NCBI GenBank assembly: GCA_963664675.2
Contig: CAXXLB010000002.1
Location: 235,114 to 299,113 of the forward strand
Reading direction: 5' to 3'
From: Petrotogaceae bacterium
Lineage (GTDB): Bacteria > Thermotogota > Thermotogae > Petrotogales > Kosmotogaceae
Length of the DNA stretch: 64,000 nucleotides
Shown here: piece by piece, positions 5,025 through 64,000 of the stretch
Layout: each line of letters starts with the position of its first letter
How positions within the stretch are numbered: the first letter of the stretch is position 1
Position numbers and translations under genes: made by a program
The notes under the pieces: model-generated
Seen by the model: the letters and a program-made list of their open reading frames with translations, nothing else
Told to the model about the DNA's origin: nothing
Databases searched by the model: none

Positions 5025-5052
5025 TGCTGCCTTACTCGGCAGTATTTTTTTT
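5025..5052 (+). terminator. rho-independent terminator after the ankyrin gene
   Basis: Stem TGCTGCC / GGCAGTA (one G-U pair), loop TTACTC, followed by T8. Confidence 0.7.
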
Positions 5053-5228
5053 GATAGTAAAATTAAAAAAAAAATTTTAAAAAGAAAGAAAAATACGATT
5101 CAAATCATTGATTCATTCGTATTTTTTTGGTTTTAACATACAGTTCACAGTTTTTTTCTTTTAGGTTGTTTAAATCATGTTAACATAAAATATATAAGTG
5201 TTATTTTTGGTTTACTGAGGAGTTTTTA

Positions 5229-48337: not shown

Positions 48338-50674
48338 TTACTTTAAGGTTATTGAGAAAATATGTGTGTTTATACTATCAGAAAAAATTATTCCTTTTAT
48401 TTTTCCTTCGGGAATTTTTACTTTCTGGATGTAAAGATAGCAGTTGATGTTCTGTTTATTACCGTTGGATTCGTACCTGAATGAGAATTCCTTCGCTATT
48501 TTTTCTCCGAATGAAGGTCCCGAACACCAATCGGAAAACGATAAAATTTTCGATTCAAATGAATCGTCCTCATAAATGATTTTTATTTCAGAACTGTAGT
48601 TACCGTGATTTGCAGAACCCAAAAAGTATATTTCATTTACCGGTAAAGGTTCGAATTCAATTGCCTGATTCTGCAATCTGAAATTGTTTAATTCATCTGT
48701 TTGAACGATAAAGGGAACAGTATCGCGGAAAAGAAGAGAAATTGAAGAATATTGATTTTCATCTCCACTCTTCATGAATTCGTTTATTTTTAAATCACTT
48801 TTCAGTTCTTCCAGCGGGTATCCTGCTCCGAGTGTGCCCTGAATGTTGTCGAAATTACCCCTCGTTCTTTGAATATCTGATGCGAATCCATCGTTGTTAA
48901 ATATCCCATTTAATTGAATGAGAGTATAATCGTCATATTTTTTATAGAGGACTCTTTCTGGAGTATCCATTTGAATTTTATTCTGATTCATTTCAAAAAT
49001 CTTCCCGTTAACTTCTTTCAGAAAATTTTCGTCGGGAGAAATATAAATTGTTTTATCCAGATTTTCCGAATATATAACGGGATTTTCAGGGATAATTATG
49101 ACCTGGTCCAGAACGATCGATTCATCGGAATTGTATGAGAAGCCGATTGAAAATTTTTCTTCTTTGCCATTTCCGGATATGTTTCCCAGAAATACAATTT
49201 TTTCATTCTGTATATTTATTGTGTTTTTATTTTTGTTTTCTCCACATCTTATGGAAACCGATAACTCTCCAGAATAATTTCCTTTTCCAAACACACCATA
49301 AATTTCATAAGAGAGAGGAGACAATTCCATCTCTTCTTTTATTCCGGAACTTCCGTTAAACGATAATGCCGCATTCCCCGAATAAGAAGTGTTCTGCAAT
49401 ATTTCAACCGGAGACAATCCCCAGTCGAATTTTTCTGCTTCCACGGTTAATGAGGGATTCAAAACTTTGTTGTCCTTCGATAAATATATTTTATACTCTT
49501 TCGGTAAGGTTTCGATAGCTGAAAGTGACAACAGATAACTTATCGTAGATTCAGCACCGGAGTTTTTATTCACGTGTGTTATCTCCATTCCATCATATCC
49601 CTGATTTGATGGACCAATCATCGCTTCCTGAAGGCCGTTCATCCCGATGAACCAGCTCATAAAGAGTTCCATAACTGTTGAGGTTTCTTCAGCCTTTTTT
49701 ACATCTTTGAAATGAACGGAGGCTTTATTTAAAGAAAGAGCCGAATTGATGAATACTTCCATTCCATAAGCCAGTTGGGGATATGAATCCACCCTGTCCC
49801 AGAATCTGTAAACGGGTCCGAACGAAATGATAAAAGCCGTTAATTTTTCAAAAATCCTGTATGTTTTTTCAAATAAAGTTTCATCGTTTAAAATAATGGA
49901 GGATTCCGCAAGGCCCTCAAGTTGTCTGGACCCCCAGCTGTGCCAGTTGAAATCTTCATTTCCCTCGTCTATCAGTCCAAAGTTTTTGTATGGGTTTTCA
50001 CTTTTATCCATCAAAGCGTCTGAAATCTGTTTTATGGTTTCCAGAATTTCATCATTTTTACTCGTTTTATACAGATCGCAACAGGCGAGCAGGAAAACTG
50101 ATGAAATATCACTGTAATTATTCAGAAGACCGTTTTGAATCTGTTTTTTCAGATGACTATATGTTCTCAGGGATTTTTCCAGAAGAATATTCGAATAGTC
50201 AAGATCTATGCTTTTAAAAACTTCAGAACCTAGCGATGTTGCCCACACAGCCCTGACTGCCCACCAGTTGGAATCCGGTCTGGAAGTTATTCCGTTTTTA
50301 TTTATACTTCCGTTTTCATAGATAAAATTATAATAATCACCATTTGAAAGTCCCATAGACAATACAAAATCCAGTGCTTCCCTTGCCCTCAATACAAAAA
50401 AATCTTCGCTGTTACCCCTTTGAATCTCCCTCAAATATAAAATTGCCGCCCTTGCAACGTCGTCTACACAGGTAATACCCTCTTCGGAAGCTTCAACATG
50501 ACTGTAAGTTCCATCAGGTTTGAGGTCTGCGTAAATCCAATAACCAGTCTGGGGAATTCCTTCAACGCTGAATTCATCTCTTAAGAATTCCAGGTGTTGA
50601 AATGATGAAATCGGGATTGCCGAAAAAACAGCAATCCCAATTAAAACAAATAATATCAGAAAAAAATTCTTCAT
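48338..50674 (-). CDS. exported protein of unknown function (778 aa)
   Basis: Signal-like N-terminus MKNFFLILFVLIGIAVFSA. Its start overlaps the stop of the upstream gene (TAATG). No motif recognised. Confidence 0.6.
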   Translation of the reverse strand: MKNFFLILFVLIGIAVFSAIPISSFQHLEFLRDEFSVEGIPQTGYWIYADLKPDGTYSHVEASEEGITCVDDVARAAILYLREIQRGNSEDFFVLRAREALDFVLSMGLSNGDYYNFIYENGSINKNGITSRPDSNWWAVRAVWATSLGSEVFKSIDLDYSNILLEKSLRTYSHLKKQIQNGLLNNYSDISSVFLLACCDLYKTSKNDEILETIKQISDALMDKSENPYKNFGLIDEGNEDFNWHSWGSRQLEGLAESSIILNDETLFEKTYRIFEKLTAFIISFGPVYRFWDRVDSYPQLAYGMEVFINSALSLNKASVHFKDVKKAEETSTVMELFMSWFIGMNGLQEAMIGPSNQGYDGMEITHVNKNSGAESTISYLLSLSAIETLPKEYKIYLSKDNKVLNPSLTVEAEKFDWGLSPVEILQNTSYSGNAALSFNGSSGIKEEMELSPLSYEIYGVFGKGNYSGELSVSIRCGENKNKNTINIQNEKIVFLGNISGNGKEEKFSIGFSYNSDESIVLDQVIIIPENPVIYSENLDKTIYISPDENFLKEVNGKIFEMNQNKIQMDTPERVLYKKYDDYTLIQLNGIFNNDGFASDIQRTRGNFDNIQGTLGAGYPLEELKSDLKINEFMKSGDENQYSSISLLFRDTVPFIVQTDELNNFRLQNQAIEFEPLPVNEIYFLGSANHGNYSSEIKIIYEDDSFESKILSFSDWCSGPSFGEKIAKEFSFRYESNGNKQNINCYLYIQKVKIPEGKIKGIIFSDSINTHIFSITLK

Positions 50675-51999
50675 TATTCCCCTATTGAATAAGATTGAAT
50701 CTCATGAGTTAATTCCTCAATAGTATTTATAGCTTCCGCAATTCCTTCCGAATGGAAAAGTTTGAAACATCTGTAAAATTCCACTTCATCTCCAGCCTTG
50801 AAATGCATTACATAATCTTCCCAACCACCTGCTGCAATGCCTTCTGTTGAAGGATAGGCCTGAAATTCTCCTGGGATCCACATGAAATATCCATCTCTGA
50901 ATTCTCTGCTTTCGTATACCCATTGAGGTCCACGAATCCACTTTTCATAATCGGCATAAACGAGGGGTTTTTCAGGAAGAATTTCTGCAACACCTATTTT
51001 CATAGATGGAGAGTAATTGGATCTCCAGTTTTCCTCCGAAGCATAAATATACGTTGCGCCCCACCATAACGGTCTCATCGCATCGGTGGCGGGGAAAACG
51101 GTGAATAATTTGTCATTGAGTTTCAGAGAAGCGCCTCTGTCTGACCAGTATTCCCAGGGAGTCGAATTGAGTTGATCGGCCCATAACAATCTTCTGAATG
51201 TGGGTAAGATATGAACGGAATCATCGGAAATATCCGTGATTGGTCTTGTAACCATGGGCTGTAGCTTCATGAGATCCTGGTAATTTTCAAATTCGAATGT
51301 AGTATCGACAATGATGTAACCGTTTTTGAAAATTGTGGTTTTGATTATCTGATTGAGACCCACAAACTGTGGCGATCTCAATTTCGCGTATACCGTAACA
51401 CCTACGTTACCGGCGGGATTTACATCCATATTTTCAACAATAAACTCTCCCGAAGTTTTTTCCTGATGACTGTTCCCATAACTTCCGTCGATATAATATG
51501 TTGAACCTACCCAACCTGCAACACGCGCCGTTCCGATTTCGTCAACTATCGTTCCTTCGTTTCCCATGAACTCAACTATTCTTACCAGACCGGATCTATT
51601 GACCAGCGCTTTGAAATTGTCAAAAGTGATCAGTATTCCGTCTTCGGTATCTTCGATTGTGGCGCATGGGGTGATTTCCTGTGCGAAATCATCTTCGGAT
51701 AGTACGATTTTCGCTGGGCCTTCCAGTAAGGTCATCAGAATGTCATCCGAGGATAGTTTTTCGTTTTTGTCCAGATCGTCGATTTGAAATTGTATAACAT
51801 TTTCTTCTCCGTCAACGATTTTTAAAGAATTCCAGTTTACATCCACATCGAATCCGACGATATCTAATAGATCCTCCAGATTTATCGTTACAGGTACCGG
51901 ATCGTCTGTAACTTTTGTAATGTTTAAGGGAATTTCCACTACTTCAGCCGTGAGTACTATACCAATAAGTAAAATAAAAAGAATTAACAGTCTTTTCAT
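50674..51999 (-). CDS. exported protein of unknown function (441 aa)
   Basis: AGGAGG precedes the start. Signal-like MKRLLILFILLIGIVLTA. A LacI-type operator lies 26 nt upstream. Confidence 0.6.
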   Translation of the reverse strand: MKRLLILFILLIGIVLTAEVVEIPLNITKVTDDPVPVTINLEDLLDIVGFDVDVNWNSLKIVDGEENVIQFQIDDLDKNEKLSSDDILMTLLEGPAKIVLSEDDFAQEITPCATIEDTEDGILITFDNFKALVNRSGLVRIVEFMGNEGTIVDEIGTARVAGWVGSTYYIDGSYGNSHQEKTSGEFIVENMDVNPAGNVGVTVYAKLRSPQFVGLNQIIKTTIFKNGYIIVDTTFEFENYQDLMKLQPMVTRPITDISDDSVHILPTFRRLLWADQLNSTPWEYWSDRGASLKLNDKLFTVFPATDAMRPLWWGATYIYASEENWRSNYSPSMKIGVAEILPEKPLVYADYEKWIRGPQWVYESREFRDGYFMWIPGEFQAYPSTEGIAAGGWEDYVMHFKAGDEVEFYRCFKLFHSEGIAEAINTIEELTHEIQSYSIGE

Positions 52000-58271: not shown

Positions 58272-60086
58272 TCAGTCACTCAAACTGTTTTCTATAACTA
58301 TCTTTTCCTGTTTGAGATTTTCTATTTCTTCCAGCTGGAAGATCACCTTTTCTTCCTTTTCTTTTTTCGTTTTATTAAACTGCTCTATTTTTTCGTAGTC
58401 GGAGCCGAAAGTAAACATCTTCTTATTCAGTATTTCGAGTTCCCTCTCCAATTCAGTTGAAGATTCTGTTAGTTCTTCTATTTTTCTTATTATCGATTTA
58501 TACCTGTTCTGCATCTTTTTTCTTTCTTTATATGAGATTTTGGATCCGCTTTTTTCTTTTTTCGTTTCGTTGTTGTCGAAGATGTGTTTCAGATAGTAAT
58601 CCAGCGAACCGATCTTTTTCAGTTTTTGATTTTCTATAAGAACGTATTTATCACAGATGTTCTCGACGAAATCCCTGTCGTGTGAAACCAGAATAATGGC
58701 ACCTTTGAATTCTTTCAAAACTTTTTCAAGACTTTCGATAGTCCAGATATCAAGGTTATTTGTGGGCTCGTCCATTATCAGGACATTGGGAGCCTGAAGT
58801 ATTACTTTGCTCAGTGCCAGTCTCGTTTTCTCTCCTCCGCTCAAATCACTCACATTTTTGAAAACATCGTCTCCGGTAAATCCGAATCTTCCTATATATT
58901 TTCTGATTTCAAAATCCGGCCAGTAGGGTTTAATTTTCCAGATTTCTTTGAGAACATCATTATCTCTGTTCAAATCTTCCTTCATCTGGGATAGATACTT
59001 CCATTTGACATTGTATCCCCATTCTATTTCCCCGGTTTTTTTTGGAATGTTATCGGTGATCAGGTTTAAAAGGGTAGTTTTACCACTTCCGTTTATTCCC
59101 AGAATCGAAAGTTTTTCTCTTCTGTTGAGTTCGAGATGGACTTTTTTAAATATTTTTTTATCCCCGTAATTGTACGATAAATCCTCGATGCTGAGAACCA
59201 CATAACCCGTTCTGCTGGGTTCGGGTATGGAGATTTTTTGCTCTTTTATTTCTTCATCCGGCAGATTTATTTCATTCATCTGTGCTTTTAATTTTTCTGC
59301 CTGCCTTTCCTTGCTCTTCGCCTGCTTGATGAATTTATCTTCGCCCCATATTCTGTATCTTTTTGCGATGGCGGTCAATCTGTCTATTTCCTTTTCCATA
59401 TTCGCTCTCTGTCTCAAACCGCTTTTAAGGAGCACTTCTCTTTCTTTTCTGTAAAGTTCGAAATCACCTTTAAAATCCCAGAGAGATCCTGAATTCAATT
59501 CCCAGAAACGATTTCCTACTTTTCTCAGCAGATATCTGTCATGAGTAACCAGAATTACTGCCCCGTTGTAACTTTTTATGAAGTTCAACAACCATTGAAC
59601 CGATTCTATATCGAGATGGTTGGTGGGCTCGTCCAGTATTAAAAGGTCGTAGTCCACGAGGAGTAATTTTCCGAGCGAAATCCTCGTTATCTCGCCTCCC
59701 GAGAAGCTGGAGATCTTTCTTTCCCATGTTTTTTCGGGGAATTCCAGACCTGTGAGAATTGATCTGACCCTTCTCTCAAAACTGTAAAACTCTTCGGTAT
59801 CCTTTAAAACCAGATTTATACTTTCCATATAATAATCGAAAAGTTTTTGATCCATATTTTTAATTCTTTCCTGCGTCTGATAGCCTATCTTTAAGTTGGA
59901 TGAAATATAAAGTGATCCTTCCGACTGCTCGAGTTTTCCGGATAAAATTTTCAGAAGAGTTGTTTTACCACTTCCATTTTTTCCTATCAGTACTATTTTG
60001 TCCTTTTTATATAATGAGGAAGAAACATTTTCAAAAAGAAAACCGTTTCCGTAATCGTGCCCAATTTTTTCCATAGTAAGTAACAT
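58272..60086 (-). CDS. ABC-F family ATPase
   Basis: Two ABC cassettes (GKNGSGKTTLL and GINGSGKTTLL, each with an LSGGE signature). A charged linker and a coiled-coil C-terminus. No TM domain. Confidence 0.85.
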   Translation of the reverse strand: MLLTMEKIGHDYGNGFLFENVSSSLYKKDKIVLIGKNGSGKTTLLKILSGKLEQSEGSLYISSNLKIGYQTQERIKNMDQKLFDYYMESINLVLKDTEEFYSFERRVRSILTGLEFPEKTWERKISSFSGGEITRISLGKLLLVDYDLLILDEPTNHLDIESVQWLLNFIKSYNGAVILVTHDRYLLRKVGNRFWELNSGSLWDFKGDFELYRKEREVLLKSGLRQRANMEKEIDRLTAIAKRYRIWGEDKFIKQAKSKERQAEKLKAQMNEINLPDEEIKEQKISIPEPSRTGYVVLSIEDLSYNYGDKKIFKKVHLELNRREKLSILGINGSGKTTLLNLITDNIPKKTGEIEWGYNVKWKYLSQMKEDLNRDNDVLKEIWKIKPYWPDFEIRKYIGRFGFTGDDVFKNVSDLSGGEKTRLALSKVILQAPNVLIMDEPTNNLDIWTIESLEKVLKEFKGAIILVSHDRDFVENICDKYVLIENQKLKKIGSLDYYLKHIFDNNETKKEKSGSKISYKERKKMQNRYKSIIRKIEELTESSTELERELEILNKKMFTFGSDYEKIEQFNKTKKEKEEKVIFQLEEIENLKQEKIVIENSLSD

Positions 60087-60111
60087 TTCTTCACCTCTTA
60101 TTTATAATATC

Positions 60112-60141
60112 AAAAAAAGAAGCGGTTATTAACCACTTCTT
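60112..60141 (-). terminator. rho-independent terminator ending the ABC-2 operon
   Basis: Minus strand reads AAGAAGTGGT-TAATA-ACCGCTTCTT (one mismatch), then T7. The loop contains the permease stop codon. Confidence 0.65.
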
Positions 60142-60959
60142 TTTAAGACACCCTTTCTTTTTGCCCATTTTTCCATTATAGAAAAGATTTTCAGACCTGT
60201 GGGCAACAAAACCACTCCCATTAAAATGAGAGGCCATATATTACTCCACTGGCTGGAAAAATCCTGTCCTTCTAAAATTGAAGCCCGCATTCCTCTGAGA
60301 GCATACGTTGCGGGTGATAGTTTTGCAACGTTCTGCATCCATGCAGGCAGTACGTCAATTTCATAATAAACACCCGAAAACATTAGCAGCAGCGCCTGAA
60401 ATATATGGACGACCTGAACACCCTTTTCCGGAGAAATGAGCGGCAGTATGGCTGCCACCACCCCAAGCCCTATAAAAGAGAAACTGGCTACGAAAAGGAT
60501 ACCTATGGCCGAAATGAAATTTGCTCCAACCAGATTCAGATCGAAGAAGAAGGACACTATTACAAGTATAACCACGCTTCTTAAAAGTCCGTATAAAATG
60601 GCGTATCCACAGGTGCTCAGAAGGTGAGTTGATCTTCTAACCGGGGCCATGAATGTATATTCGATGGTTTCTTCCCATCTTTCCCATGCGACGGTTTCGG
60701 CAACTATTTCGAAAAGTATAGAAAGATACCCCCACAAAATAGAACCAATAAGCATGTAAAGTATCAGATAATTTGTATCAACAGCCGTTCCAGAAAAGGC
60801 TTCTACTCCCTTTCCGATGAACCCCATGGTTATAGAATTGGCTATTGTATATAAGAAAAAAACCACTTCCCATTTCCAATACCTCTTCGTGAGATTGAAA
60901 TTTCTTTCTATAAAAGCCAGAGAAGCTCTCAACTCTCTGACCAAAGGTTTTACACTCAT
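60129..60959 (-). CDS. ABC-2 type transporter permease
   Basis: 276 aa, 6 predicted TM segments, ABC-2 pattern. It overlaps the ATPase stop by 4 nt. Confidence 0.8.
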   Translation of the reverse strand: MSVKPLVRELRASLAFIERNFNLTKRYWKWEVVFFLYTIANSITMGFIGKGVEAFSGTAVDTNYLILYMLIGSILWGYLSILFEIVAETVAWERWEETIEYTFMAPVRRSTHLLSTCGYAILYGLLRSVVILVIVSFFFDLNLVGANFISAIGILFVASFSFIGLGVVAAILPLISPEKGVQVVHIFQALLLMFSGVYYEIDVLPAWMQNVAKLSPATYALRGMRASILEGQDFSSQWSNIWPLILMGVVLLPTGLKIFSIMEKWAKRKGVLKRSG

Positions 60960-61762
60960 GCGGATACAACCTCCCCGGAACTTTTCCCGTATTCGGCATC
61001 TTCAAAAGACAAACCAGTGAATTCAATGAATACATCTTCAAATGTCGGATTGGATATTTTACTCACCAGCTTTCTTTTTAGTTCCTGAGGGTTACCGGTT
61101 ATCATTATTCTTCCGTTATGAATTATTGAAACCCTGTCACACAGTTTTTCTGCTTCACTCATATCGTGAGTCGTCAGTAAAATAGTTGCCTTCGTTCTGG
61201 CTCTCAGGTCGAGAATTAATTTCTGAACATCCTTTTTCGCTCTGGGATCCAATCCTGTTGTCGGTTCGTCAAGCAATAATATTTTTGGATCGGTTATGAA
61301 TGCCCTCGCTATGGCAACTTTTTGTTGCATTCCCCTCGAAAAGTCTTCAAGGGGATCTTTGAGTCTTTTTCTGTCCAGACCGACTTTATCTATCAAATTT
61401 TCTATCTTATTTAAAGCTTCTTTTTTACTTATTCCGTGAATACCTGCAGAATAAAACAGATTTTCATAAGCGGATAGTTTTCTGAAGAAACTGGCCTCCA
61501 CCGAAACTCTGTTCATTATTTCCTGTACATATTTCTGGTGTTTCTTCACATCATGATCGAAGATCTCGATCTCGCCTTCATCCGGAAAAAGTAATGTAGA
61601 AGCAATTCTTATGAATGTTGATTTACCTGAACCGTTGGGCCCCAGTAATCCGTATATTTCACCTTCGTAAATATCGATGTCTATACCTTTTAAGGCCGTG
61701 ACGATTTTTTTGTTCTTCTTAAACCTTTTAACTATATTTTTCGCGTGAATGGCAATTGCCAT
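60956..61762 (-). CDS. ABC transporter ATP-binding protein (DrrA/ABC-2 partner type)
   Basis: GPNGSGKST, FSRGMQQK and LLLDEPTTGLD. The ATG at 61762 is 8 nt after GGGAGG (the track start at 61771 is a GTG inside the SD). Confidence 0.9.
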   Translation of the reverse strand: MAIAIHAKNIVKRFKKNKKIVTALKGIDIDIYEGEIYGLLGPNGSGKSTFIRIASTLLFPDEGEIEIFDHDVKKHQKYVQEIMNRVSVEASFFRKLSAYENLFYSAGIHGISKKEALNKIENLIDKVGLDRKRLKDPLEDFSRGMQQKVAIARAFITDPKILLLDEPTTGLDPRAKKDVQKLILDLRARTKATILLTTHDMSEAEKLCDRVSIIHNGRIMITGNPQELKRKLVSKISNPTFEDVFIEFTGLSFEDAEYGKSSGEVVSA

Positions 61763-61792
61763 GAAATTCACCTCCCAGATAAATTGGAAAAA

Positions 61793-61930
61793 CTATTCGA
61801 ACTTTACTCTCTGTTCCCGGTAAAGGGCAAAATCTGAGATAATTATCGATTCCGCATTACATAATCCTGAACATTCTCCGCGTTTTTCGTTGATAGTGTT
61901 TCTTAAACCTATTTTTCCTGCATATAACAT
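61793..61930 (-). CDS. small protein P4, 45 aa (MLYAGKIGLRNTINEKRGECSGLCNAESIIISDFALYREQRVKFE)
   Basis: Not on the ORF track. GGGGGTG lies 6 nt upstream of the ATG. It shares the C-terminal ISDF(A/L).Y..Q(R/K) motif with three upstream ORFs. Confidence 0.55.
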   Translation of the reverse strand: MLYAGKIGLRNTINEKRGECSGLCNAESIIISDFALYREQRVKFE

Positions 61931-61966
61931 TTCTTCACCCCCTGAACATGTTTCAGACTTTCTCGC

Positions 61967-62083
61967 TCATATCTTGAATCTCTGATTGTTGTAAGAGAGA
62001 AAATCTGAGACAGCATCCGCTTTTGCTTTACTCAAATCCAAATACCTTAAATCTCTTCTTCTTTTTTTATTTTTTAAAGACAT
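61967..62083 (-). CDS. small protein P3, 38 aa (MSLKNKKRRRDLRYLDLSKAKADAVSDFLSYNNQRFKI)
   Basis: Not on the ORF track. GGAGGG lies 6 nt upstream. It carries the shared VSDFL.YN.Q motif. Its Ser codon is tca, against agt in P2, which argues for selection at the protein level. Confidence 0.55.
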   Translation of the reverse strand: MSLKNKKRRRDLRYLDLSKAKADAVSDFLSYNNQRFKI

Positions 62084-62111
62084 AAAAATCCCTCCTGTAT
62101 TTAATCGATTT

Positions 62112-62234
62112 TTATAAATCTATTTTTTGAATGTTATAGGGTAGAAAATCACTCACTATTTCAGCCCTTGTCCCTTTTATAATTTTGTTTACACCCGTCT
62201 TTCCTTTGTAGATTTTTTTATTTATATTGAACAT
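62112..62234 (-). CDS. small protein P2, 40 aa (MFNINKKIYKGKTGVNKIIKGTRAEIVSDFLPYNIQKIDL)
   Basis: Not on the ORF track. GGGGAGGT lies 7 nt upstream. It carries the shared motif. Confidence 0.55.
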   Translation of the reverse strand: MFNINKKIYKGKTGVNKIIKGTRAEIVSDFLPYNIQKIDL

Positions 62235-62420
62235 AAACTTACCTCCCCGGATCTGTGATAATAAATCTTAATGATCTGATGCTCCCGGCCCGCTTTGGAA
62301 CAGAGCGCCTGCCGTCATAAACATCAACACTGAGAATTCCTTGTATACAACTCCGACGTTCACATTTTCAGAATACCCGTTCTCTTTTCTGTCATTTTTT
62401 ACCTCCTTAGCCATGGATTC

Positions 62421-62540
62421 TTACAGTATTATCTTTTTCACATGATACTTAAAAGAATCTGGTTTAGTGACATTTTTCGACTTCTCTGAACTCTCCTTCT
62501 CCTGCTTCGACTCGTTGATGATTTTTTCTTCAAATAACAT
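62421..62540 (-). CDS. small protein P1, 39 aa (MLFEEKIINESKQEKESSEKSKNVTKPDSFKYHVKKIIL)
   Basis: Not on the ORF track. GGAGGT lies 7 nt upstream, immediately after the leader terminator. It carries a more divergent copy of the motif (PDSFKYHVKKIIL). Confidence 0.45.
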   Translation of the reverse strand: MLFEEKIINESKQEKESSEKSKNVTKPDSFKYHVKKIIL

Positions 62541-62553
62541 AATTCTTACCTCC

Positions 62554-62586
62554 AAAAAAAAACGACCGTGGTCTACGCCACGGTCG
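62554..62586 (-). terminator. leader (attenuator) terminator upstream of the small-ORF/ABC-2 operon
   Basis: Minus strand reads CGACCGTGG-CGTAGA-CCACGGTCG (a perfect 9-bp GC-rich stem), followed by T9 and then directly the SD of P1. Confidence 0.75.
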
Positions 62587-62735
62587 CTATGTATGTAAAA
62601 GAGATCACTCTCAAATTATCACCATACGTTCATACAAGATGCGACGTGGCACACTCATCCCTGCAACAGTATCAACTTTTACTACGGTTCTAAATCTCAA
62701 AATCATCCACTCGCACCTCCTTTTCTCAAAAATTC
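62587..62735 (-). promoter_or_regulatory. 5' leader with mutually exclusive helices (attenuator-like) and an SD-preceded 31-codon leader ORF (62611-62706)
   Basis: Segment 62640-62650 can pair either with 62707-62715 or with the terminator 5' arm at 62577-62587. The leader ORF is MILRFRTVVKVDTVAGMSVPRRILYERMVII. Confidence 0.5.
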
Positions 62736-62741
62736 AAAAGT

Positions 62742-62769
62742 ATTATACCACCATTTGAAAAAAAATCAA
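62742..62769 (-). promoter_or_regulatory. sigma-70-type promoter (TTGATT, 16-nt spacer, TGgTATAAT extended -10)
   Basis: Minus strand reads TTGATTTTTTTTTCAAATGGTGGTATAAT. It lies about 30 nt upstream of the leader SD. Confidence 0.65.
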
Positions 62770-63011
62770 TAGTGACCCAAGTCATAAATGTGTTTTTTCA
62801 GTTACAATCAATTTTTCATTATGGTGTAATAAACTTTTTTTACAGAAAACGAAGGATATATGAGTTGCTTTCAATCAAGTTTACATGAACAGAGAAAAAA
62901 CATAATAATTGATAATAAACGGAAATAATTATTTAATGTGACCAAATTTGGTGTTTGAAATTTAGTAAGGATTAGTAATAAAATCCATATATACTATATA
63001 GGAGGGGTTTT

Positions 63012-63620
63012 ATGAAATCTTTAAAAGTTTTATTTCTTTTTGTTGCTATTTTGATGGTATTCAATACCTTTGTACTGGCTGCGGTCACGGGTGATGAACC
63101 TATAAAGGGTGAAACACCATTTTTATTGACCAATGCGGGACAGGGTCCAGGCGGTAAAATGGCCAGATTGCTCATGTTTCAATCCAAAGCATTGTTGCCC
63201 ACAGATTTCGATTACAATGCAGAGCCATTGAAGGAGGACTCAACGGATCTTACGAAGAAGGATTACGAAATACTCTTTGTAATAATAGGTTCTTCTGCAA
63301 AGGGGTTGGGGGCCTCCGGAATCACAATCGACGATGAAATAAATAGATTGAATCTTATGATTAAAGAAGCCAAGAAATTGGGAATGACAATAGTTGCGGC
63401 TCAGATCGAAGGGGATGCCAGAAGGGGAAAACCCGGAAGTGCGGACGAAAGATCAATCGATGCCATAATTCCATTTGCGGACTATATAATAGTCAAAAAA
63501 GATGGAGACAGTGATGGAAAGTTCACAAATATGGCGCAGGAACTCGGTGTTCCCATAACTTACATCGATGAAACCCTTGATTTTATGCAACTTATGCAAC
63601 AAATGTTTCCAACTGAATAA
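63012..63620 (+). CDS. exported protein of unknown function (202 aa)
   Basis: GGAGGGG precedes the ATG. Signal peptide MKSLKVLFLFVAILMVFNTFVLAA. No motif recognised. Confidence 0.6.
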   Translation: MKSLKVLFLFVAILMVFNTFVLAAVTGDEPIKGETPFLLTNAGQGPGGKMARLLMFQSKALLPTDFDYNAEPLKEDSTDLTKKDYEILFVIIGSSAKGLGASGITIDDEINRLNLMIKEAKKLGMTIVAAQIEGDARRGKPGSADERSIDAIIPFADYIIVKKDGDSDGKFTNMAQELGVPITYIDETLDFMQLMQQMFPTE

Positions 63621-63651
63621 AAGTAAAAAATAATACGGGGGGTAGAAAAAT

Positions 63652-64000
63652 ATGTATTTACAGGCGACCATTGTATTAATCGCAATGATTGCAACCTTCG
63701 CAATTAGCAGTTGGAAACTCAAATCCACCGAATTATCGATGGTAGTAACTGCAATTGTTGGAGCACTGGTAGGGGGATTTGGATTCCCGGCTAGATTGCT
63801 TGTAGAGGGTATGTTTACATTTTTCGATGTGGGGATGACTTTTATCACTGCGGCGATATTTATAAACATATATTCTGCAACCGGTGCTATGGATGCTATA
63901 GTAAGAGCGATTGTACAGAATTTTCATTCGAAGAAATGGGTAGTTTTCATATTGCTTGGAGGCATTATGTTGATCCCGGGTGCTTTGACGGGCGCGGGAA
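63652..64000 (+). CDS. integral membrane transporter, partial (runs off the window; ion-transporter-superfamily-like)
   Basis: Not on the ORF track because no stop lies within the window. GGGGGG precedes the ATG. The frame is open to the window end and the sequence is hydrophobic (MYLQATIVLIAMIATFAIS...LIPGALTGAG). Confidence 0.5.
   Translation, partial: MYLQATIVLIAMIATFAISSWKLKSTELSMVVTAIVGALVGGFGFPARLLVEGMFTFFDVGMTFITAAIFINIYSATGAMDAIVRAIVQNFHSKKWVVFILLGGIMLIPGALTGAG

Follow-up and report, generated by a model that had tools for sequence, protein, structure and literature searches.

Here, we describe an array of small-protein genes in a 64-kb stretch of a Petrotogaceae bacterium genome (contig CAXXLB010000002.1; the whole stretch is referred to as the window), in which four short open reading frames (ORFs), P1 to P4, lie between a leader attenuator and the genes for an ATP-binding cassette (ABC) ATPase and an ABC-2 permease. 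Comparison with related loci indicates that P2, P3 and P4, and perhaps P1, are genuine protein-coding genes under selection and not chance ORFs. Selection bears on a linear motif spanning 13-15 residues at the C-terminus; the remainder of the chain, towards the N-terminus, is cationic in P2 and P3 and evolves fast. The gene unit is carried on the minus strand and is read from 62769 to 60114, in the order promoter, leader ORF P0, intrinsic terminator, P1, spacer, P2, P3, P4, ABC ATPase and ABC-2 permease.

P1 (62421-62540, start codon ATG) encodes a 39-amino-acid (aa) protein ending in ...PDSFKYHVKKIIL. P2 (62112-62234) and P3 (61967-62083) encode small proteins of 40 and 38 aa with the SDF motif, ending in ...IVSDFLPYNIQKIDL and ...AVSDFLSYNNQRFKI, respectively, and P4 (61793-61930) encodes an SDF-motif protein of 45 aa with a conserved CSGLC in its N-terminal half. 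The ORFs are separated by 186 nt (P1-P2), 28 nt (P2-P3) and 36 nt (P3-P4), and P4 ends 30 nt before the ATPase gene. Each is preceded by a Shine-Dalgarno (SD) sequence, GGAGG for P1, P2 and P3 and GGGGG for P4, and the next SD lies 15-24 nt beyond each small-ORF stop codon, as read from the sequence. A preliminary description of this DNA had listed the ORF coordinates, gaps, C-terminal sequences, codons of the conserved serine and closing terminator, all of which were correct upon re-reading of the sequence. The SD sites that it placed before each ORF are also present, but we counted a spacing of 7-8 nt to the ATG instead of 6-7 nt.

The family was defined by a length of 38-45 aa, the C-terminal motif [IV]SDF..Y..Q[KR], and a position between the P0 terminator and the ABC ATPase gene. 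P2, P3 and P4 display all of these features. P1 has the position and the length and lacks the motif; a profile of P2-P4-type sequences did not detect it at E<10, and only D, Y, K, I and L in its last 13 residues are common to P2-P4. The P1 orthologues in the related loci L001, L032 and L051 have kept their position, their length and a C-terminal DS[FL].[YF]H..KI.L pattern. There are thus three firm family members (P2-P4) and one doubtful member (P1), so that the motif family of four that had been proposed holds for the proteins carrying SDF..Y..Q(K/R), but not for the loosely similar P1 that the profile missed. In the six-frame translation of the window, SDF..Y was found four times, including three occurrences within 330 nt at the array; shuffles of the whole 64 kb gave a mean of approximately 1.0. 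The conserved serine is encoded by AGT in P2 and by TCA in P3 and P4, which belong to two codon families. The motif phenylalanine is not invariant, as P4 of L032 reads SDSIPY, and the final 1-4 residues and the stop codon vary (IDL-TAA, FKI-TGA, KFE-TAG). All four proteins had been described as basic, but only P2 and P3, in which the net charges of +5 and +7 reside in the N-terminal part, are strongly so; P1 is at +2 and P4 at +1.

To compare the array among relatives, we used loci designated L001-L051, of which L051 is an ENA contig; a scan of one genome per species with the permease yielded 49 orthologous loci. The strict motif was present in the two closest loci, L001 (97% permease identity) and L032 (92%), and also in L051 (91%), always before the same ABC-2 pair. 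These loci contain 4, 5 and 6 small ORFs (sORFs), respectively, each with its own GGAGG-type SD and ATG, and all are situated between the P0 terminator and the ATPase gene. The arrays support the earlier suggestion that P1-P4 are tandem paralogues.

The proportions of nonsynonymous (pN) and synonymous (pS) differences were counted by the Nei-Gojobori method, both between the P2 paralogues within a locus and between orthologues paired with those of L032 and L051. Over the last 17 codons, pN was 0.13-0.23 as compared to a pS of 0.46-1.0, which corresponds to a pN/pS ratio of approximately 0.15-0.3 with synonymous change near saturation. The ratio was approximately 0.4-1 in the N-terminal parts and 0.4-0.5 in the C-terminal part of P1, and P4 was constrained over its full length (pN 0.18 and pS 0.75 for the N-terminal part versus L032). 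Indels between orthologues were in frame, and start codons, SD sites and reading frames were retained. Folding of the P2-P4 region, as compared to shuffled sequence, revealed no excess of RNA structure (z = 0.17 and -1.1). A long structured 5' untranslated region (UTR) with incidental ORFs was rejected for P2-P4 because of this folding result and the C-terminal constraint, together with the conserved arrays and the in-frame indels. The low C-terminal pN/pS and the use of two serine codon families bear out the earlier view that conservation is at the protein level.

Database searches indicate that only one narrow clade of uncultured Kosmotogales has the family. When 5.8 billion clustered proteins were searched with a profile, 15 matches emerged, all of the type described here, and none of them was named or carried a Pfam domain. 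An exhaustive HMMER search of 1.84 billion representatives added one family member and two repeat-protein artefacts and nothing else, and a scan of JGI metagenomes added one further locus of the same type. An exact look-up of P2 matched no recorded contig, and none of P0-P4 had a match in Pfam or NCBIfam. The ORFs had been called unannotated, but a related metagenome-assembled genome (Kosmotogales bacterium) has them as 'hypothetical protein' (MDK2950723, MDK2950725 and MDK2950726). In the literature, we found no report of this motif, of small proteins from Kosmotogales, or of tandem sORFs accompanying an ABC-2 pump.

Every locus with the motif has an ABC-2 ATPase and permease pair immediately downstream, and the linkage, which the preliminary description had proposed to check, holds within the same transcription unit in every genome where the family was found. 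The peptides thus always occur with the pump, whereas the pump is common without the peptides. Copy number turns over, with 4, 5 or 6 sORFs among close relatives and a shortened slot in the window. This slot is the 186-nt spacer at 62235-62420, which contains an SD, an ATG at 62395, 11 codons and a stop, and it is possibly a decayed paralogue copy on the basis of its position. The SD, ATG and 11 codons occupy the site of an intact extra SDF paralogue in L032 and L051. Similarity between the spacer DNA and the paralogues was not significant (z <= 2). The spacer also contains a 48-aa ORF (62268-62414) that lacks an SD and is absent as a conserved ORF in L001.

The array is preceded by a leader in which P0 and its terminator look like a four-segment, ribosome-dependent transcription attenuator, to judge from the predicted structures. 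A promoter-like site at 62742-62769 (TTGATT, 16 nt, TATAAT; 10/12 matches) has an extended -10 TG, and the extended -10 sequence TGnTATAAT was also seen in related loci. P0 (MILRFRTVVKVDTVAGMSVPRRILYERMVII; 62611-62706), a leader ORF of 31 codons, was identified by ORF search and by its presence at the same site in orthologous loci. Its SD (GGAGG, 62716-62720) and start codon make up segment 1 (62704-62722), which pairs with segment 2 in the minimum free energy (MFE) fold. Segment 2 (GTGCCACGTCGC; 62641-62652) lies within P0 and has two alternative pairing partners, segment 1 and the 5' terminator arm. The two arms of the strong intrinsic terminator (62552-62588) make up segments 3 and 4; this terminator consists of a stem at 62561-62588 with 11 bp, 7 of them G-C, followed by T9. 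The SD of P1 adjoins this T-run with no gap.

The same arrangement was found well beyond this clade. An upstream ORF (uORF) of approximately 21-35 codons with its own SD, followed by a terminator, is present in at least 27 orthologous loci, and a common head consisting of the extended -10 promoter, SD, uORF, G+C-rich terminator and next SD occurs in nearly all orthologous loci (within L002-L048; for example, L016:4838-5001, L040:153-325 and L025 at approximately 5040-5225). The loci with this head are labelled Thermotogota (including Thermotoga, Pseudothermotoga and Mesoaciditoga), Caldisericota, Fimbriimonadaceae (Armatimonadota) and Anaerolineaceae (Chloroflexota). In these leaders, segment 1 again comprises the SD and start of the uORF, segment 2 lies at approximately +55 to +70 of the uORF, and segments 3 and 4 are the terminator arms. 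The segments differ between clades and yet covary, as in GCCAC/GTGGC, GTCAC/GTGAC and TTCAC/GTGAA. Cognate duplexes were accordingly more stable than cross-clade duplexes, with -21.7 versus -13.5 kcal/mol for the 3:4 terminator, -17.7 versus -12.6 kcal/mol for the 2:3 antiterminator, and -17.4 versus -13.1 kcal/mol for the 1:2 duplex. In full-length MFE folds, the 1:2 (9-17 bp) and 3:4 (10-13 bp) pairings were both present in all 27 of the 27 aligned leaders. When the region from the SD to approximately +16 was masked, which mimics a ribosome at the start, and the transcript was ended before segment 4, the 2:3 pairing formed in 26 of 27. An SD-bearing short ORF before a terminator, along with exclusive and covarying terminator and antiterminator pairings, is among the features that characterize a leader-peptide attenuator.

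According to this model, a ribosome held at or near the P0 start would free segment 2 to pair with segment 3, and RNA polymerase would read through, while normal translation, or none, would allow the 3:4 terminator to form. Since the terminator precedes P1, P1-P4 and the pump would be produced together, and only upon read-through. Co-transcription of the small ORFs with the exporter, as claimed before, therefore stands with respect to the shared unit, but it depends on read-through of a terminator that had been overlooked along with P0. No single residue was enriched in the amino-acid content of the uORFs, which makes amino-acid sensing less plausible than a response to antibiotics or to translation stress in general. 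A side variant occurs in the Caldisericia loci (L028-L031 and L035-L037), which lack the terminator and in which a Trp-rich sORF of 30 codons (MFKMRRQNVVNWKNWMLYHVDFSFIYPIYM) adjoins the ATPase gene, for example at L028:5079-5171; this may be a translational variant of the switch. An Rfam scan of 59500-63500, assessed by E-value, returned nothing relevant, and the leader is apparently an undescribed attenuator class that spans several phyla without a counterpart in Rfam. The leader suggests that stalled ribosomes turn on a conserved ABC-2 pump, which is therefore a candidate for an intrinsic response to drugs in Thermotogota, Caldisericota and further phyla that have been little studied.

The pump consists of an ABC ATPase with a DrrA/ABCA-like nucleotide-binding domain (60956-61762; Pfam PF00005) and an ABC-2 permease (60129-60959; Pfam PF01061), and a terminator-like hairpin at 60114-60144 closes the unit. 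The distribution of the pump and its switch indicates that both are older than the peptides, which would be lineage-specific additions, because orthologous exporters with the attenuator occur in at least four phyla without these sORFs. Accelerated pump evolution in the clade that carries the SDF motif was considered and rejected. Permease identity in the SDF clade was 71-75% to four Thermotogota outgroups and 55-57% to the Mesoaciditoga locus L041, approximately the same as in sister clades. ATPase identity to the four Thermotogota outgroups was 53-56% for the SDF clade versus 56-62%, a difference of at most about 4 percentage points, and there was no difference against L041. The permease had no match among PDB sequences. 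As a separate observation, when the pump of the window was compared with those of L002-L046, the permease was better conserved than the ATPase in most Thermotogota and Caldisericota comparisons (for example, 81 versus 69% and 75 versus 54% identity). This is opposite to what is usually seen and may point to a substrate or partner that is strongly conserved.

The slot between the terminator and the ATPase gene has had a varied history. It is empty in seven loci (L020, L025, L027, L038 and L040-L042) and contains two sORFs in L012. Overall, it holds 1-3 sORFs in Kosmotogaceae relatives, 4-6 in the clade of the window, and 0-3 in other lineages. In nine lineages (L008, L014-L019, L021 and L045), it holds an sORF of 33-39 codons that ends in Pro-stop (for example, L015:460-561 and L017:5027-5128); in at least three of these lineages (L008, L015 and L017), it overlaps with the start listed for the ATPase gene. 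This sORF is probably a coupling or regulatory uORF. Outside Kosmotogaceae, the sORFs are near neutral, with a pN/pS of 0.58-0.78 in three compared pairs of the Pro-stop type, which retain their length and end. The sORFs of two Kosmotogaceae sister clades (L002/L005/L006 and L003/L004) are constrained, with a pN/pS of 0.25-0.39, and the L009/L011 pair is intermediate at 0.52.

Similarity between the SDF family and these sister-clade sORFs was limited. For the N-terminal half of P4 (M.Y..K...E.R...SGLC), a weak match was obtained with the sORF that L003, L004 and L039 carry at this position (shuffle z of 2.7-5.8; hhalign P = 2.6e-4, probability 42%), and a KKIY.G likeness of P2 to the L005 sORF was supported by shuffles alone. 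The whole-family profile compared by hhalign with the sister-clade sORFs gave a probability of approximately 1%. The preliminary description had regarded the N-terminal halves as unrelated to one another, a view that needs qualification for P4, whose N-terminal half is constrained and has this weak match. Origin by partial duplication of the 5' end of the ATPase gene was tried as an explanation for the array and rejected, because BLOSUM62 local alignments to the N-terminus of the ATPase were no better than shuffles (p 0.1-0.97). We infer that a uORF conserved in position and free in sequence became constrained small-protein genes in Kosmotogaceae and that these multiplied in the clade of the window. 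We found no earlier description in the literature of paralogous sORFs under constraint that are arrayed between an attenuator and the genes of an ABC-2 pump.

With regard to function, we tentatively suggest that the peptides act in trans by docking, through their C-terminal motif, on the pump with which they are co-expressed; they would probably be cargo tagged for export. In this proposal, the motif would be a docking or recognition tag for the ABC-2 pump, the variable N-terminal part would be the payload, and the export-tagged linear peptides would have taken over an older pump whose ancestral substrate differs. The suggestion is based on the multiplicity of the peptides, the combination of a conserved tag with a variable remainder, the turnover in copy number, and the strict linkage to the pump. 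AlphaFold2 modelling of P2 with the family alignment gave a predicted local distance difference test (pLDDT) score of 52.7 and no secondary structure. The helical hydrophobic moment of the conserved 15-mer was approximately 0.25-0.3 in P2 and P3 and 0.10 in P4, and proline was often present. By these measures, the conserved segment looks like a short linear motif on a disordered chain and not like an amphipathic membrane-active helix. A more elaborate form of the proposal, which we consider doubtful, is that SDF..Y..Q(K/R) is an uncleaved export or docking tag for an ABC-2 (type V) pump and represents a new form of leaderless peptide secretion, with payloads released by the attenuator and genes born from uORFs. 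The fast-evolving cationic N-terminal payloads could then be signals, or antimicrobials acting inside target cells, that are released upon the translation stress reported by the attenuator.

Several observations weigh against export of tagged cargo. P1 and P4 are not cationic, and the peptides have neither a signal peptide nor a double-glycine leader; genes for a receptor or for immunity were not found in the neighbourhood. Exporter orthologues with the same attenuator occur in Thermotogota, Caldisericota, Armatimonadota and Chloroflexota, where the sORFs are absent or unrelated, and the permease shows no acceleration in the SDF clade. Nascent-chain arrest peptides encoded in 5' leaders, too, are typically conserved at the C-terminus and free to vary at the N-terminus. 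Finally, the evidence was obtained entirely by computation, on genomes assembled from metagenomes of uncultured organisms.

A serious rival explanation is that P1-P4 are cis-acting uORFs. The motif would then arrest or pause the nascent chain in response to drugs, metabolites or translation status, and would tune the downstream ABC genes as a second layer behind the P0 attenuator. On balance we regard this as rather unlikely, although it accounts for a number of features. The transporter operon has these ORFs in its 5' leader, where a ribosome-sensing attenuator is already present, they have no predicted fold, and the presence of a conserved C-terminal segment in a short leader ORF with a free N-terminus is as expected for arrest peptides. 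A length of 38-45 aa also approximately fits the ribosomal exit tunnel. Furthermore, sister lineages retain the position-conserved, sequence-free uORF in this slot, with Pro-stop in nine and an overlap with the listed ATPase start in several, and for this reason the family probably descends from a cis-acting uORF. Against arrest in the present array, however, 3-6 paralogues retain the motif in spite of saturated synonymous change, including copies that are distant from the ATPase gene, and we know of no arrest system with tandem paralogous arrays. The varying last 1-4 residues and stop codons do not provide a conserved peptidyl-transferase-centre residue or stop context, no RNA structure able to mask the SD was detected in the folded region (z as above), and the next SD, at 15-24 nt past the stop, is beyond the footprint of a terminating ribosome.

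Another explanation, which we judge to be unlikely, is that P1-P4 are non-exported cytosolic modulators that dock by their motif on the nucleotide-binding domain of the pump, on the ribosome or on the ABC-F protein encoded nearby, and that would adjust the activity of the docked partner during the stress that opens the attenuator. The hydrophilic and predicted disordered nature of the peptides would suit such a role, as would their inferred expression only alongside the pump and the slightly greater divergence that the ATPase shows in the SDF clade and the permease does not. There is a precedent in SgrT, a hydrophilic small protein that inhibits a transporter. A review relevant to this comparison is PMC10710835. 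On the other hand, a modulator has no obvious need for 4-6 variants, hypervariable N-termini and a changing copy number, and many lineages use the same pump without such a protein. If the peptides are export-tagged cargo or pump modulators, the motif would be a new recognition motif for ABC-2 exporters, and the array would be a clear case of small-protein genes that were born from a regulatory uORF slot and then multiplied; if they are ordinary coupling uORFs, the finding is of local interest only.

The preliminary description had favoured a dedicated exporter of a multi-peptide leaderless bacteriocin. A classical set of this kind, or a set of membrane-active peptides resembling phenol-soluble modulins (PSMs), with a dedicated exporter and immunity pump, now appears improbable; the docking or export tag suggested above is a looser form of that idea. 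Several paralogous peptides within 30-50 aa and without an N-terminal leader are indeed found in one operon adjoining an ABC-2 pair, P2 and P3 are cationic, and copy number shifts among close relatives. However, searches of Pfam and NCBIfam matched no bacteriocin family, and the AlphaFold2 model contained no helix bundle or helical amphipathic (saposin-like) fold (pLDDT as above). Amphipathicity is weak, given the low hydrophobic moment and the proline within the motif. The pump is ancestral and widespread without the peptides, its permease is unaccelerated, and the gate is a translation-sensing attenuator instead of quorum or immunity genes. As had been noted before, no modification enzyme is present; family scans of the neighbouring genes found none (radical SAM, YcaO, LanM and so forth), and no peptidase-domain ABC transporter, such as would be expected for ribosomally synthesized and post-translationally modified peptides (RiPPs). 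Least probable of all, and by our estimate very improbable, is that the ORFs are incidental or neutral duplication relics in a long 5' UTR, for while the family is very young and narrow, N-terminal pN/pS is near 1 in some pairs and one slot is possibly decayed, this is opposed by a C-terminal pN/pS of 0.15-0.3 at a pS of up to 1.0, by starts, SDs and frames kept across in-frame indels, and by the lack of RNA structure that could account for the conservation.

The neighbouring genes encode a DUF6305 protein, an ABC-F protein, GH130, a sugar ABC importer, LacI, an AstE/AspA-like protein and unknown proteins. The ABC-F gene (58272-60086, minus strand; NF000355, 403 bits) is ribosome-protection-like. 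Such a gene lies directly 3' of the permease gene only in part of Kosmotogaceae (L001, L003, L004, L009-L011, L039 and L047), and it fits the translation-stress theme of the locus. The DUF6305 gene (63012-63620, plus strand) is the divergent upstream neighbour, an arrangement that is kept in L001 and L032. On the strand opposite to it, a 138-aa ORF (63453-63869) partly overlaps its 3' end and is probably spurious. Elsewhere in the window, two adjacent large ORFs on the minus strand (48338-50674 and 50674-51999; 778 and 441 aa) had no Pfam match at E<=1e-5.

Several known systems share parts of this layout. Aureocin A70, enterocin L50 and garvicin KS comprise 2-4 paralogous leaderless peptides of 30-45 aa, each with its own ribosome-binding site and with an ABC exporter adjoining. 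Their peptides have compact amphipathic helical folds and belong to recognisable families. The mining of leaderless bacteriocins is treated in PMC11580447. Similar to these sets, P1-P4 are paralogous leaderless peptides with their own SDs beside an ABC exporter; in contrast to them, they are predicted to be disordered, are weakly amphipathic and belong to no such family, and the pump is older than the peptides. In Staphylococcus aureus, psm-alpha consists of four tandem leaderless small ORFs, the peptides of which are exported by the Pmt ABC-2 pump. The PSMs are amphipathic helices of 20-25 aa, the psm genes are outside the pmt operon, and control is by Agr and PmtR. The present locus resembles this system in its tandem leaderless small ORFs and ABC-2-type pump and differs from it in that the peptides are 38-45 aa long, weakly amphipathic, and encoded in the pump operon behind an attenuator.

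The arrest peptides TnaC, SpeFL, SecM and MifM are encoded in the 5' leaders of transport or metabolic operons. Each occurs as a single copy that depends on conserved last residues and a conserved stop context, and each acts with a defined RNA structure or rut site. P1-P4 are like them in being short ORFs of exit-tunnel size in a 5' leader, with a conserved C-terminus and a variable or basic N-terminus, but they are not single-copy, their last residues and stops vary, and RNA structure was not detected in the folded P2-P4 region. A conserved C-terminal tag with a variable remainder is also known from RiPP 'follower' peptides and from type I secretion, in which the signals are C-terminal. P1-P4 likewise carry a conserved C-terminal tag on a variable chain, in this case without a modification enzyme, membrane fusion protein, TolC or repeat domains.

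Among described systems, the P0 attenuator is closest to that of bmrCD in Bacillus subtilis, which relies on the BmrB leader peptide (PMC4191407), and to those that control ABC-F genes, including vmlR and msrD, through uORFs (PMC9226507; 10.1101/2021.11.29.470318). As in these systems, a leader ORF, an intrinsic terminator and an alternative antiterminator would gate an ABC export or resistance operon with the state of the ribosome as the input. Unlike in these systems, segment 1 is the SD and start codon of the leader ORF itself, the pump is an ABC-2 (type V-like) pair, and the design is conserved over at least four phyla. The attenuator thus appears to be a further instance of a known leader-attenuator type that is conserved across an unusually wide range of phyla. 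In this clade, and in neither BmrB/bmrCD nor vmlR/msrD, a constrained small-protein array lies between the terminator and the pump. The SDF family is very narrow, and the evolutionary picture is coherent.

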